NCBI GenBank assembly: GCA_031287845.1
Contig: JAITSI010000069.1
Span: 1-47,454, forward strand
From: Puniceicoccales bacterium
GTDB lineage: Bacteria > Verrucomicrobiota > Verrucomicrobiia > Opitutales > JAIRLM01
Length of the DNA stretch: 47,454 nucleotides
Reading direction: 5' to 3'
In this document: positions 44,066-47,454 of the stretch, piece by piece
How positions within the stretch are numbered: the stretch's first letter is position 1
Layout: the number at the start of each line of letters is the position of its first letter
Notes under the pieces: model-generated
What the model was told of the DNA's origin: nothing
Databases searched by the model: none
The model's input: the letters and a program-made list of their open reading frames with translations, nothing else
Made by a program: the position numbers and the translations under genes

Positions 44066-46030
44066 CTAGTGTTGGGTTTGTGTCCCGGCGTTTGGTGTCC
44101 TGGCGCGGTATTCCGCATAGTCCGCATAGCTTGGAAATTGGTGGGATCCGTATCCATAGACGGCGCGGGCGTTAAAGCCATTTTGCATAATGCGGCACAG
44201 CACCCAGCTCAGGTTGACCTTGCCGTCGATGATCATCTCATTTTGCCTAGCATCGTTATAGTCGCAGACCCATCCCAGTTTTTCGCAGGCGCTTGCCACC
44301 CGGTCGATATCGCGATAGATCAGAAAGGATGGGGAGCGGCCGGCGCCGGAATTGCAGTGGGCAAGCAGGCAGACCGGTTCATTGGGTCGGCCTGACAATG
44401 TGGCGACCTGTGCCTCGATTCGCTTGTAGGCATCTAATAGGGCCTGAGCCGATGCCGGCGCCAGTGCTCCATTATCTGACCAATTGGCAATGCGCAGCCG
44501 GTAAAAGATGTTCTTTTTTTTGTTTTTGTTCAGGCAAAAACTTTGCAAGCCGAGGGCGAGTTCAGAGGAATATTCCCGGTTTTGATTTCCCAAATCGTCG
44601 TATCGCACCATTTTTATGGGTATCTTTTCTAGCGGACCCACGTGTTCGACATTCGTAATTACGCCATTTTCCGGAGTGGGATTATTGAAGTATTTGTTTT
44701 CTTCATTGAATAGCACTATTTCGGAATATTTATCAGTATTTTCCCATGCCAATGGATAGTCTATTCCGTCGGAACTCATATCCGCGATGATTAAATTTTT
44801 TCCATTGAATTCCTCGCCCAAGGCCTCGCAAAATGCTGTCTGCGTCGGCATGTAACGTCCATCGAGATACAGCGGATGAGAGCAAACATAGCTTTCCTTT
44901 GTAATTTGCGAAATGTCGCCCCAGATAGTTTGTTCATTGGTGAGGGATTTGTTGGGACCATCATTAAAAAACGCAAGGAGCTCCGTATTTGGGAGAAACA
45001 AATTTTGCTTCTGAAATACGCTCTTGTTGGTACTTGTTGCAATAACCAGTGGGGTAGCTTTGATCTTAGATCTCTCGGTGACACATTGCACATTGTGCTG
45101 TTTCAGTGAGTATTTTTCCAGTGCATTCGGAATCTTCTCGGTTGGGCACACGGCATGGAAATCAATTTTTTCTAGGCCATTGCTGTCCACGGGGAAGTCG
45201 TTCCCGAACATTCCGAGTAAAAGTTCCTTTACATTTTGCTCGGTTGGCGTTTCTGTTTCCGACAGTTGGGTGCTGATTTTGGCGGACGCGGGAAAGTGGA
45301 TCACAGTTTTCGCAGGAGAAATTTCCGGAGATGGCAATGGGGGAGTTTGGTGAGAGGTTTGAGAAGAGGTTTGCGAAGAGATTTGAGAAGAAATTTCAGA
45401 GGAGGTTGTGGAAGAGGTCGATGATGAGAATTTAGATGAAAGTTCGGATGGGGGCTCGGGGAGTGTTAAGCTTTGGACTTTAGGGGGAGCCATGGGAGAG
45501 GTTTGGGAAGAAACTGTGGCGATGGGGACGCTTGGCTGAGACGTGTCCGTAGTTTGATTGTTCTCCTGTGACGGAGGAGTTGGAATGAGCTTAGTGTGCG
45601 TACTGTGGCCTTTCCGGAGGCAGGTGCAAAGGATAAGCACTCCAATGGAGCCGATGGCCAGCGCGGCCAACGGAACGGCGAGAAAAACCAATGGGAATGG
45701 CAAAAATATGACCATAACGGCGGCGCCGGCCAGGGCCAGCAATGAGATTGTCAGACAGGTGGTAAAAAGAACGGGACAAATCCCGGTGGTCTTACAAGTC
45801 TGAAGCTTGCATGGCGGAATAACGATTTTTTCGACTGAAATATTCTGTGTCTCTGATTTCAAAACATTTTTCTCGTTCAGTTCCACGCGGTCAAACTGGG
45901 CAAGGGAACTGCTTTGGCAAGGATTTTCTTCGACTGGGAAATTGAGCAACTTTCCAGCTTCGGCGTCGGGTTTATGGCGTAGTATTTTGCCCCTCGGATT
46001 GTCCGGCACGGTACTCCGCATAGTCGGCAT
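44066..46030 (-). CDS. Membrane-hairpin protein with Ser/Thr/Gln-rich linker and C-terminal classical protein-tyrosine-phosphatase-like domain (paralogue 1)
   Basis: HCNSGAGRS (CX5R P-loop, nt 44333-44359). WPD-loop position reads ANWSDNGA ~40 aa upstream. FCEALGEEF..NLIIADMSS resembles the PTP FWxMxWE/IVMLT motifs. Bilobed hydrophobic segment ICPVLFTTCLTISLLALAGAAVMVIFL-PFP-LVFLAVPLAALAIGSIGVLILCTCL. AT-rich. Start uncertain: ATG 46030 overlaps the paralogue 2 stop by 59 nt; ATG 46021 and GTG 46009 are alternatives. Confidence 0.7.
   Translation of the reverse strand: MPTMRSTVPDNPRGKILRHKPDAEAGKLLNFPVEENPCQSSSLAQFDRVELNEKNVLKSETQNISVEKIVIPPCKLQTCKTTGICPVLFTTCLTISLLALAGAAVMVIFLPFPLVFLAVPLAALAIGSIGVLILCTCLRKGHSTHTKLIPTPPSQENNQTTDTSQPSVPIATVSSQTSPMAPPKVQSLTLPEPPSELSSKFSSSTSSTTSSEISSQISSQTSSQTSHQTPPLPSPEISPAKTVIHFPASAKISTQLSETETPTEQNVKELLLGMFGNDFPVDSNGLEKIDFHAVCPTEKIPNALEKYSLKQHNVQCVTERSKIKATPLVIATSTNKSVFQKQNLFLPNTELLAFFNDGPNKSLTNEQTIWGDISQITKESYVCSHPLYLDGRYMPTQTAFCEALGEEFNGKNLIIADMSSDGIDYPLAWENTDKYSEIVLFNEENKYFNNPTPENGVITNVEHVGPLEKIPIKMVRYDDLGNQNREYSSELALGLQSFCLNKNKKKNIFYRLRIANWSDNGALAPASAQALLDAYKRIEAQVATLSGRPNEPVCLLAHCNSGAGRSPSFLIYRDIDRVASACEKLGWVCDYNDARQNEMIIDGKVNLSWVLCRIMQNGFNARAVYGYGSHQFPSYADYAEYRARTPNAGTQTQH
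45354..45401 (-). repeat. Four degenerate tandem 12-nt units inside paralogue 1 (encode SEIS-SQIS-SQTS-SQTS)
   Basis: Plus strand reads GAGGTTTGAGAA GAGGTTTGCGAA GAGATTTGAGAA GAAATTTCAGAG consecutively. Confidence 0.8.
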
Positions 46031-47454
46031 AGCTTAGGAATTGATTGCGTCCGCATCCATAGACGGAGCGGGCGTTGATACCGTTTTGCAGAATGCGGCA
46101 CAGCACCCAGCTCAGATTGACCTTGCTCTCGACAAGCATTTGATTCTGCTTGCTATCGTCGTAGGTGCAGGCCCATCCCAGCTTTTCACAGGCACTTGCC
46201 ACCCGGTCGATGTCGCGATAGATAAGAAAGGAAGGGGAACGGCCGGCGCCGGAATCGCAGTGGGCAAGCAGGTAAACCGGTTCCTGCGGCCGGCCTGACA
46301 ATTCGGCGACCCTTGCCTCAAACCACTTGTAGCTATCTATGATAGCCTGGGCCGATTCTCCGATTGGCGCTCCTCCGTCGGGCCAATTTTTAATGCGTAG
46401 CTGGTAGAACGTGTTCATTTTTCCATTCCTAATTTTCAGTTGAAAACTTTGCAGGGTAAAAGCGAGGGATGCATTGATGCTATTTATCTCTCCATTTTTT
46501 TCTAGCATGACTGTTTCCTGCTCTACTGTTGTAGTCCTTTTTTGGACGTTCGTGACCATGCCATTCGCTGGGAAAAATGGTTCGAATTCGCTGTCGATGC
46601 GGTCATTTTCCCAATCGAATAGATAATTTTCATTGCCCGAGCTCATGTCCACGATGATTAGGTTTTTTCCGTCGAACTCCTCGTGCAGGGCCTCGCAAAA
46701 TGCCCTCTTTGACGGCATATCCTGCCGTTTTGCAAGGAGACATGCTGGGCTTGGGCAAACATAGGAGGTTGCGGTGATTTGCGAAATGTCGCCCCAGATG
46801 GTTTCTTTGTTAACCGAAGCGCAATTCTCTCGGTTCCAAACATTTGTATCCCGCATCCATAGACGATTCCACTGCGCCTGCGGGACGAATACATTTTTTT
46901 GCCGATATACACTCCTTTTGCTGTGCGTTGCAAAGGTCAATATGCCAAATGGTGATTGGGCGGCGAGAATTTTTACGCCGTGCCGTTTCCGCGAATACTG
47001 TGCCAGTGCCGCCGGCAACCCGTCATCGCTTATGTTATTAAAATCAATTTTGCCCAACTTGCTGCCGTCCACGGGAAAGTTTTCCCCGAACAATAGCTGC
47101 AAAAGTGTCTTTACATTTTCATTGGTTGGACTTTCTATTTCTGACAGTGAAGCATGGATTTCAGCTAGTACGGAAGGGGGAATTTTGTAAGAATTTTTGG
47201 TGTTTCGGAGGCAGGTGTAAAGGATAAACAGTCCAATGGAGCCGATGGCCAGCGCGGCCAACGGAACGGCGAGAAAAACCCATGGGAATGGCAAAAATAT
47301 GACCATAACGACGGCGCCGGCCAGGGCCAGCAATGAGATTATCAGACAGGTGGTAAAAAGAACGGGACAAATCCCGGTGGTCTTACAAGTCTGAAGCTTG
47401 CATGGCGGAATAACGATTTTTTCGACTGAAATATTCTGTGTCTCTGATTTCAAA
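45972..47454 (-). CDS. Membrane-hairpin protein with classical protein-tyrosine-phosphatase-like domain (paralogue 2, 5' end beyond window)
   Basis: HCDSGAGRS (nt 46236-46262). Canonical WPD loop in IKNWPDGGAP 40 aa upstream of the Cys. Same bilobed hydrophobic segment as paralogue 1. The ORF runs off the window edge. Confidence 0.7.
   Translation of the reverse strand, partial: LKSETQNISVEKIVIPPCKLQTCKTTGICPVLFTTCLIISLLALAGAVVMVIFLPFPWVFLAVPLAALAIGSIGLFILYTCLRNTKNSYKIPPSVLAEIHASLSEIESPTNENVKTLLQLLFGENFPVDGSKLGKIDFNNISDDGLPAALAQYSRKRHGVKILAAQSPFGILTFATHSKRSVYRQKNVFVPQAQWNRLWMRDTNVWNRENCASVNKETIWGDISQITATSYVCPSPACLLAKRQDMPSKRAFCEALHEEFDGKNLIIVDMSSGNENYLFDWENDRIDSEFEPFFPANGMVTNVQKRTTTVEQETVMLEKNGEINSINASLAFTLQSFQLKIRNGKMNTFYQLRIKNWPDGGAPIGESAQAIIDSYKWFEARVAELSGRPQEPVYLLAHCDSGAGRSPSFLIYRDIDRVASACEKLGWACTYDDSKQNQMLVESKVNLSWVLCRILQNGINARSVYGCGRNQFLSYADYAEYRAGQSEGQNTTP

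Follow-up and report, generated by a model that had tools for sequence, protein, structure and literature searches.

The end of contig JAITSI010000069.1, a stretch of 47,454 nucleotides (hereafter the window) whose public record is labelled 'MAG: Puniceicoccales bacterium' (MAG, metagenome-assembled genome), raises the question of what two neighbouring genes, each joining a membrane hairpin to a protein tyrosine phosphatase (PTP) domain, are doing in a verrucomicrobial genome, and on which side of the bacterial envelope their products would act. Classical PTPs are rare in bacteria and the well-studied ones, YopH and SptP, are secreted virulence effectors. An original prediction, made from the letters of the window, took both products to be host-directed effectors anchored in the manner of chlamydial inclusion-membrane (Inc) proteins. 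The analysis presented here places them in a clade-specific, previously undescribed branch of the classical PTPs, some members of which carry an Inc-like anchor, and weighs the export of the anchored members against the alternatives.

Two adjoining open reading frames (ORFs) on the minus strand fill the last 3.4 kb of the window:

44066 to 46030, minus strand: paralogue 1 (LBT98_03275), an ORF of 654 amino acids (aa), 647 aa in the NCBI call
45972 to 47453, minus strand: paralogue 2 (LBT98_03280), partial, 493 aa

The pair of adjacent genes proposed earlier is thus present at these coordinates; what had gone unmentioned is that paralogue 2 is incomplete, being cut at its 5' end where the contig stops inside a repeat. 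The start of paralogue 1 is ambiguous between ATG 46030, ATG 46021 and GTG 46009 (the NCBI choice), each of which overlaps the 3' end of paralogue 2. The two proteins share 51% identity across 404 aa (4e-130), rising to 81% across the N-terminal 98 aa. The low-GC island described beside a core of above 60% GC was also recovered, the values being 0.487 for the island and 0.638 for the core, with the lowest 60-nt lines at 0.35. The remainder of the window comprises tuf, nusG, rpoB, rpoC, fusA and the S10, spc and alpha ribosomal operons with secY and rpoA, and ftsW/rodA adjoins the island. Since they share a contig with these conserved core genes, the PTP genes are located in a genuine verrucomicrobial chromosome.

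The phosphatase portion of the two proteins was delimited as follows:

44069 to 45283, minus strand: paralogue 1, conserved domain made of an N-terminal extension and a classical PTP core (Pfam, profile searches)
45975 to 47165, minus strand: paralogue 2, conserved domain made of the N-terminal extension and the PTP core; this sequence was modelled (Pfam, AlphaFold, Foldseek)

The conserved domain spans about 390 aa, of which about 95 aa form a family-specific N-terminal extension and about 290 aa the PTP core, and is therefore longer than the approximately 280 aa first attributed to it. In a Pfam scan of the window proteins at E <= 1, Y_phosphatase was the sole match; paralogue 2 scores 26.0 bits over its full length and 26.7 bits over the domain, above the gathering score of 20.9, and paralogue 1 falls just under that score with 19.5 bits. 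A single-sequence phmmer search against the PDB gave a marginal match (PTPRN2, E 0.11). Sensitivity was gained with an alignment of 31 sequences (A2) chosen from 58 relatives described below, which was used for profile searches and for AlphaFold. The A2 profile matched 310 PDB sequences at E <= 0.01, and the best 60 of these 310 are classical PTPs save one PTP-like phytase; RPTP-alpha was matched at 3.9e-18 and SHP2 at 1e-11, over most of the PTP domain (residues 249-480). Among the 31 family members, 23 match Y_phosphatase (E <= 0.01, best 2.7e-11), and DSPc, Tc-R-P and PTPlike_phytase are matched by fewer and never with a better E-value.

The AlphaFold (AF2) model of the paralogue 2 domain built on the 31-sequence alignment is confident (predicted local distance difference test, pLDDT, 88.6; predicted template modelling score, pTM, 0.92), whereas a model fed with three paralogues only was unusable (pLDDT 43.9). 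Foldseek compared the confident model with the PDB and returned 526 matches at E <= 0.001, the best 50 of which are all classical PTPs with a probability of 1.00, led by PTP1B (7e-08) and followed by PTPN14, SHP2, LAR, TCPTP and the plant AtPTP1. Target TM-scores (template modelling scores) among these best 50 are modest, at about 0.3-0.53, and identities are 9-18%; we take the modest scores to be due to the N-terminal extension and the extra loops predicted in the model. By fold, P-loop, acid loop and Pfam score, the domain is a divergent classical PTP, as had been claimed from its motifs. It is under purifying selection, with a dN/dS of 0.38 between paralogues 1 and 2 in the coding frame. 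NCBIfam holds no match for the window proteins and a full-text literature search retrieved no paper on a PTP with a bilobed hairpin or on effectors of these Opitutales, in keeping with the earlier remark that the architecture is not a described family.

The catalytic motifs were located at the following positions:

44474 to 44482, minus strand: paralogue 1, WSD of the general-acid loop, Asp kept (profile alignment, read-back)
46377 to 46385, minus strand: paralogue 2, WPD (profile alignment, read-back)
44333 to 44359, minus strand: paralogue 1, P-loop HCNSGAGRS (motif scan, read-back)
46236 to 46262, minus strand: paralogue 2, P-loop HCDSGAGRS (motif scan, read-back)
44135 to 44170, minus strand: paralogue 1, Q-loop ARAVYGYGSHQF, with Tyr at the PTP1B Q262 equivalent and Gln at the Q266 equivalent
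46038 to 46073, minus strand: paralogue 2, Q-loop ARSVYGCGRNQF, with Cys at the Q262 equivalent and Gln at the Q266 equivalent

The ordered motif set named in the original prediction was read back in full at exact coordinates: both paralogues carry FCEAL(H/G)EEF..NLII(V/A)DMSS, followed by NWPDGGAP in paralogue 2 or NWSDNGA in paralogue 1 and by HC(D/N)SGAGRS 41 residues past the W. In a profile alignment, W-P-D and H-C-X5-R align with the PTP1B WPD (D181) and HCSAGIGRS (C215, R221). CX5R is retained in all scanned family members but two, P0012 (Cys to Gly) and P0045 (Cys to Ser), so that the Cys/Arg pair, on whose conservation the assignment had been made to depend, is kept in the relatives save for these; the two exceptions are likely pseudophosphatases. 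The general-acid Asp is at least 90% conserved in A2 and is retained in all paralogues, and the position separating W and D is occupied by P, V, E, K, T, A, H or S in different family members, with the W itself often L, I or V. The suggestion that WSD marks an altered acid loop in paralogue 1 is therefore not supported, such variability of the Pro position throughout the family making WSD an ordinary variant.

The Q-loop is more unusual. The family consensus is R-S-T-F-x-Q-x-x-x-Q-F, whose spacing of R (0), +5 and +9 equals that of R257, Q262 and Q266 in PTP1B, and an HMM (hidden Markov model) alignment places the stretch on the SHP2 Q-loop only weakly (E 0.041). The second Gln (+9) is invariant; of the 55 family sequences scored, 39 have the first (+5). 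A Gln of the PTP1B Q262 type positions the water that hydrolyses the cysteinyl-phosphate. Replacement of the first Gln is, judged from these alignments, the true active-site oddity of the window copies, and without this Gln the second catalytic step may be slowed or redirected.

Compared with the classical PTPs (PF00102; PTP1B, SHP2, RPTP-alpha, LAR), the family shares the fold as seen in the model and by Foldseek, the HCX5R(S) P-loop, an acid Asp on a W-x-D loop about 40 residues upstream and the R..Q..Q spacing of the Q-loop, and the motif resembling FW.M.WE....IVMLT of those enzymes is present here as FCEAL.EEF....LIIVDMSS. It differs from them in its low identity (11-18%), in the additional N-terminal extension of about 95 aa with the motif FG.NF..D...IDF, in about 15 aa inserted after the P-loop helix and ahead of the Q-loop, in a P-loop that runs on as GRSPS or GRAPT and not GRSGT, in the unconserved Pro of WPD, in the replaced first Q-loop Gln of the window copies and in a KNRY loop that is unrecognisable. 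YopH of Yersinia and SptP of Salmonella provide a bacterial parallel, being likewise domains of classical PTP fold in a host-associated bacterium with a presumed host phosphotyrosine target. No match to their N-terminal secretion or chaperone-binding regions was found (Pfam, E <= 1; NCBIfam), however, and those effectors are soluble, have no hairpin and come from another phylum.

An exhaustive HMMER search with a three-paralogue profile identified 58 relatives at E <= 0.001 among 1.84 billion cluster representatives, whereas a word-indexed protein search recovered just paralogues 1 and 2 and a third paralogue, P0003. Thirty relatives were looked up and an organism name was available for 17, all of which (17/17) are 'Puniceicoccales bacterium' MAGs; their locus-tag prefixes are LBT98, LBP65, LBF26, LBF24, LBS68, LBD72, LBI69, LBI81, LBR91 and LBC42, with one record untagged. 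A scan of GTDB representative genomes gave 13 loci, 12 of them in eight MAGs (accessions JAIRLM to JAITOA; isolate names Cc175, Nm470, Gsp477, Pcl387 and Po218); the thirteenth, in a Clostridia MAG, is a weak match of 50 residues at the P-loop. JGI metagenome contigs, scanned twice, gave no relative. The accession range and sample codes of the 12 loci are those of Mies et al. 2024 (PMC11257099), according to which the hosts are Cryptotermes cavifrons, Neotermes meruensis, Glyptotermes sp., Procryptotermes leewardensis and Porotermes adamsoni. Each of the five belongs to the lower termites, a group with flagellates in the gut. The same study describes related Opitutales as putative protist endosymbionts, reports small genomes and a nucleotide transporter for them, and includes the intranuclear 'Candidatus Nucleococcus' in that clade (PMC11257099). 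By its locus-tag series, LBT98 almost certainly belongs to this project. The family is thus confined to Puniceicoccales MAGs, the traced ones being from lower-termite guts. The SecY of the window is 82% identical to a SecY assigned to LBP65, a MAG carrying the relative P0007, and LBP65 is on this ground the sister genome of LBT98.

The membrane anchor lies towards the N-terminus and is followed in paralogue 1 by a linker:

45617 to 45790, minus strand: paralogue 1, bilobed hydrophobic hairpin of 58 aa, TTGICPV...LPFP...LILCTCL (hydropathy and read-back)
47208 to 47381, minus strand: paralogue 2, bilobed hydrophobic hairpin of 58 aa (hydropathy and read-back)
45284 to 45616, minus strand: paralogue 1, Ser/Pro/Thr-rich low-complexity linker of 111 aa (S 25%, P 15%, T 14%)

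The hairpin, predicted earlier as a segment of about 55 residues in two lobes joined by PFP, has 58 residues and is free of D, E, K, R, Q, N and H, the lobes meeting at LPFP and reaching Kyte-Doolittle 19-residue maxima of 2.5-3.0 between flanks rich in K and R on either side. The hydrophilic stretch ahead of it measures about 80 aa in paralogue 1 and, given the truncation, 24 aa or more in paralogue 2. A cleaved signal peptide, which would have spoken against the anchor, was rejected, as the segment begins 24 to 80 residues in and spans 58 residues. The linker of paralogue 1 is homologous to that of P0003 and is absent from paralogue 2, in which this flexible segment has been deleted.

In topology the arrangement recalls the Inc proteins, which likewise have a bilobed hydrophobic segment (53-58 residues here) with a short Pro-containing turn, a hydrophilic N-terminus ahead of it, a large C-terminal domain predicted on the same side, paralogue families and a place in the PVC (Planctomycetes, Verrucomicrobia, Chlamydiae) superphylum. 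In contrast to them, the present proteins show no homology to any Inc family (Pfam, E <= 1) and come from Verrucomicrobiota, not Chlamydiota. We know of no Inc with a PTP domain, and a full-text literature search found none. The likeness is one of topology only, an analogy rather than membership. The anchor also sets the proteins apart from the eukaryotic enzymes, since it is an N-terminal two-helix hairpin, whereas PTP1B has a C-terminal tail anchor and the receptor PTPs (RPTPs) a single-pass receptor topology.

Further paralogues outside the window, whose existence had been raised as a possibility, are present in the same MAG on other contigs: P0003 (acid loop WHD), which has the hairpin, and a hairpin-less fourth copy, P0004. 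Seven representatives carry a hairpin; the two-lobed N-terminal segment and low-complexity linker are found also in P0007 (LBP65), P0019 (LBS68) and P0042 and P0051 (both LBI69), whose catalytic domains are only about 21-28% identical to those of the window, so that the hairpin-plus-PTP architecture occurs in at least four MAGs. Most family members have no membrane segment. Some carry leucine-rich repeats (LRRs) matching the eukaryote-type models LRR_At1g61320 and LRR_At5g56370, and the largest are of 3,387 and 4,310 aa, the larger (P0026) with a DUF3638 region. Pfam did not confirm an OTU-protease motif suspected in P0026 and P0045. A single chain of P0009 contains two PTP domains, recalling the D1-D2 tandems of receptor PTPs. 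In MAG Cc175_bin47, a 707-aa protein (L007:631-2754, minus strand) has a multi-lobed hydrophobic segment at the N-terminus, then a Pro/Thr-rich linker, and a long C-terminal region that no Pfam model matches, its gene and the adjoining LRR-PTP gene being divergently transcribed; it has no PTP domain and is, by analogy of layout, an Inc-like protein without one.

The family genes of related MAGs stand singly amid housekeeping genes (IF-2, topoisomerase I, AlaRS) or amid orphans. In three of these MAGs (L002, L003 and L007), PTP gene(s) occupy the same place, being followed downstream by three conserved ORFs (465, about 400 and about 1036 aa) whose sizes suggest a possible RND (resistance-nodulation-division) efflux operon; the shared position points to vertical inheritance of that locus.

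Repeats at and around the island bear on how the window copies arose:

45612 to 45863, no strand assigned: copy 1 of a 252-nt tract that spans the N-terminal region together with the hairpin, 97% identical to 47203-47454
47203 to 47454, no strand assigned: copy 2 of the 252-nt tract, 97% identical to 45612-45863; the contig terminates here
44003 to 44065, minus strand: what remains of the leader of another tandem unit; its identity to the sequence past the paralogue 2 stop is about 75%, and it is cut by the MITE-like element (MITE, miniature inverted-repeat transposable element)
43501 to 44002, plus strand: GC-rich MITE-like repeat, long form, with terminal inverted repeats GGTCAGGACCCGTAAAC / GGTTTTACGGGTCCTGA, at the island border (repeat comparison)
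about 290 to 830 (minus strand), 3031 to 3362 (plus strand) and 5448 to 5812 (minus strand): other MITE-like copies, with fragments at 34-156 and 8644-8717

Synonymous divergence (dS) between paralogues 1 and 2 is 0.015 in the N-terminal region and hairpin as against about 1.0 in the catalytic domain, from which it follows that the anchor module has recently been homogenised by gene conversion and that the enzyme domains are old. As the contig ends inside a 97% repeat, where an assembler is expected to stop, more copies may follow. The MITE-like repeat exists in two forms, of 330 nt and 510 nt, with at least four further occurrences in the window; it has no Rfam family and no copy in the related MAG loci. 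P0004 (L014:2207-3310, Logan SRR14710895), which lies downstream of an arginyl-tRNA synthetase-like gene (motifs judged by eye), has a native GC of 0.66 and a GC3 (GC at third codon positions) of 0.79, and a 22-nt match to the MITE terminus occurs just past its stop. The PTP genes of related lower-GC MAGs have GC values of 0.41-0.53, and the low-GC trio of paralogues may derive from such a relative.

A second low-GC gene lies at 3531-5492 (minus strand; GC 0.52), encodes a 653-aa ORF and is bracketed by two inverted MITE-like copies. Its product has a C-terminal PI3/PI4-kinase-like catalytic loop (GQTDRNPQN ... IDND) and matches Pfam PI3_PI4_kinase at E 4.6e-05 with 23.9 bits, below the gathering score of 27.1; no NCBIfam match, no PDB sequence relative and no copy in the related loci were found. 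From these motifs, the gene may encode another eukaryote-like effector.

The hairpin-PTP proteins are most plausibly tools to manipulate a protist host. The bacterium would live in association with a gut flagellate and export these proteins; the hairpin would insert in a host-facing membrane, either that of a symbiont-containing vacuole or of a host organelle, with both termini in the host cytosol, and the tethered domain would dephosphorylate host phosphotyrosine or a related phosphomonoester beside that membrane. The chemistry would proceed through the usual cysteinyl-phosphate intermediate with the Asp as general acid, and hydrolysis may be slower or altered where the first Q-loop Gln is replaced. 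The copies diversify through tandem duplication, the anchor module being kept uniform by gene conversion and the low-GC copies sitting in MITE-bordered islands. We give an exported, host-membrane-anchored phosphatase acting on host phosphotyrosine or a phosphomonoester at that surface a probability of about one half. The clade restriction, the lower-termite origin of the traced MAGs and the eukaryote-type LRRs of the relatives provide circumstantial support for it.

Several observations weigh against export and a host phosphotyrosine target. Neither the window nor the scanned parts of about 170 kb of related loci showed a secretion system, a secretion signal or a chaperone. The GC of the core is 64%, whereas the putative endosymbiont clade is described with a lowered GC. 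The positive charge on both flanks of the hairpin fits ordinary bacterial inner-membrane insertion. The apparent insertion free energies (dGapp) of the lobes, obtained as a crude simple sum on the Hessa scale, are -0.6 to -3.4, in the same range as the SecY and FtsW helices of the same window, and lobe 1 of paralogue 2 is more hydrophobic than the 'moderate' band of PMC6110835, from which the criterion was taken. With regard to the catalytic domain, the subclade closest to the window has W, Y or C at the +5 position of the Q-loop (Tyr for paralogue 1, Cys for paralogue 2), and the KNRY phosphotyrosine-recognition loop (Tyr46), which sets pocket depth, was not placed, the profile alignment to SHP2 being unreliable there; A2 has a conserved S-x-Y and a near-invariant Asp that are at most candidate counterparts of it.

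The main alternative, although we regard it as doubtful, is a resident inner-membrane phosphatase whose hairpin is inserted by the signal recognition particle (SRP) and SecYEG with both ends inside, and which acts on cytoplasmic phosphoproteins or metabolites of the bacterium. The K/R residues on either flank obey the positive-inside rule, the dGapp values are those of SecY and FtsW helices with lobe 1 of paralogue 2 beyond the band of secreted effectors, no secretion genes were seen among the nearby genes scanned, and the family genes are dispersed amid housekeeping genes. Most membrane effectors of the type III and type IVB secretion systems (T3SS, T4BSS) are reported to be only moderately hydrophobic (Krampen et al. 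2018, PMC6110835), and strongly hydrophobic Legionella effectors are described as able to pass through an inner-membrane intermediate (PMC11602083). Since such an intermediate is possible for strongly hydrophobic effectors, the criterion did not discriminate between a secreted and a resident membrane protein. The present proteins indeed resemble the transmembrane effectors of the Legionella/Coxiella T4BSS and of T3SS in combining one or two membrane segments with an enzymatic or interaction domain for host membranes (PMC6110835 and PMC11602083), and are unlike most of them in the high hydrophobicity of lobe 1 of paralogue 2.

What tells against a resident enzyme lies elsewhere. The bacterial tyrosine-kinase circuits known to us use phosphatases of the low-molecular-weight (LMW-PTP) or PHP type, not classical PTPs. 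A housekeeping role would not predict absence from all other bacteria among the 1.84 billion representatives, the majority of members lack a membrane segment and are built instead with eukaryote-type LRRs or as giant multidomain proteins, and expansion into paralogues, low-GC islands and MITE borders typically mark accessory genes for host interaction.

A second alternative concerns the substrate and is compatible with the location favoured here: the hairpin might hold the active site at the bilayer, the substrate being a membrane lipid or inositol phosphate. This we consider unlikely. In its favour are the tethering itself, the KNRY loop that could not be recognised, the PI3/PI4-kinase-like gene in another low-GC island of the contig and a phytase signal, PTPlike_phytase being touched by 5 of the 31 members (7.8e-05) and PDB structure 3f41, a PTP-like phytase, being reached by the A2 profile at 1.4e-10. 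The window proteins are not among these Pfam matches. They differ from the PTP-like phytases in matching Y_phosphatase alone, the phytase matches of the wider family are weaker overall, and the strongest and most numerous matches are to phosphotyrosine-specific classical PTPs. PTEN-type lipid phosphatases have basic residues in the P-loop; HC(D/N)SGAGRS has none. Most relatives, moreover, are without a membrane anchor.

It is decidedly improbable that the window copies are crippled pseudophosphatases, reduced through loss of the first Q-loop Gln to trapping substrates or scaffolding. The residue at the Q262 equivalent, Gln in 39 of 55 sequences, is indeed Tyr or Cys in the window and W, Y or C in the nearest relatives, and P0012 and P0045 are clear pseudophosphatases within the family. 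Yet the Cys, Arg, Asp and second Gln are all kept under purifying selection, P0003 retains the first Gln, and many active Cys-based phosphatases have no Q-loop at all.

Least credible of all, and very improbable, is a chimeric assembly or binning error joining protist or other foreign DNA to a verrucomicrobial contig, for although the island lies at the extreme contig end, has a GC 15 points under the core and encodes a eukaryote-like domain, its ORFs are intronless and unbroken with a dN/dS of 0.38, the border repeat recurs four times within the contig and again beside P0004 on a contig of native GC, the interior low-GC gene at 3531-5492 is flanked on both sides by high-GC core, P0004 is a family member with the native GC of 0.66, the contig end coincides with the 97% repeat at which an assembler is expected to stop, and no fewer than 12 independent MAGs of this clade contain relatives.

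The exported, host-membrane-anchored phosphatase may be part of a wider picture, which we regard as possible but rather doubtful: flagellate-associated Opitutales/Puniceicoccales of lower-termite guts may have evolved their own class of hairpin-anchored Inc-like effectors, some with an enzymatic classical-PTP domain, either independently of the chlamydial Incs or anciently shared with them in the PVC superphylum. Such effectors would decorate the interface between symbiont and host and rewrite host phosphotyrosine signalling, and the class would diversify via tandem arrays, MITE-bordered low-GC islands and gene conversion that acts on the anchor cassette. If the Inc-like reading is true, this would represent, outside Chlamydiota, the first family of enzymatic Inc-type effectors and would imply an export route so far unrecognised in these symbionts; if the proteins are ordinary inner-membrane enzymes, they constitute a lineage-specific family of unknown role.

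In either case, an undescribed PTP family marks one clade of uncultured termite-gut verrucomicrobia thought to live in or on gut flagellates, a clade for whose host-control mechanisms the literature searched yielded nothing. Its hairpin-anchored members are clonable and testable candidates for proteins of the symbiont-protist interface, and the hairpin-PTPs give a natural test for Inc-like membrane effectors beyond Chlamydiae. For enzymology, the family offers an outlying branch of the PTP fold with its own N-terminal extension, a variable acid loop and a water-positioning Gln that has been lost in one subclade.

Promoter-like and terminator-like sites of the island were no more frequent than in shuffled sequence, and an Rfam scan gave two tRNAs and nothing else. 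A further low-GC patch (8824-9782, GC 0.50) contains a SocA/Panacea-domain antitoxin gene (8824-9255, Pfam 5.3e-18) and an unassigned 127-aa ORF on the opposite strand, with the MITE fragment 8644-8717 just upstream. An ORF at 6842-7942 (plus strand) encodes a homologue of ATP:guanido phosphotransferases (McsB-type protein arginine kinase; Pfam 1.1e-31) and overlaps the start of the longest ORF of the next gene, an ABC-ATPase (7645-8649).

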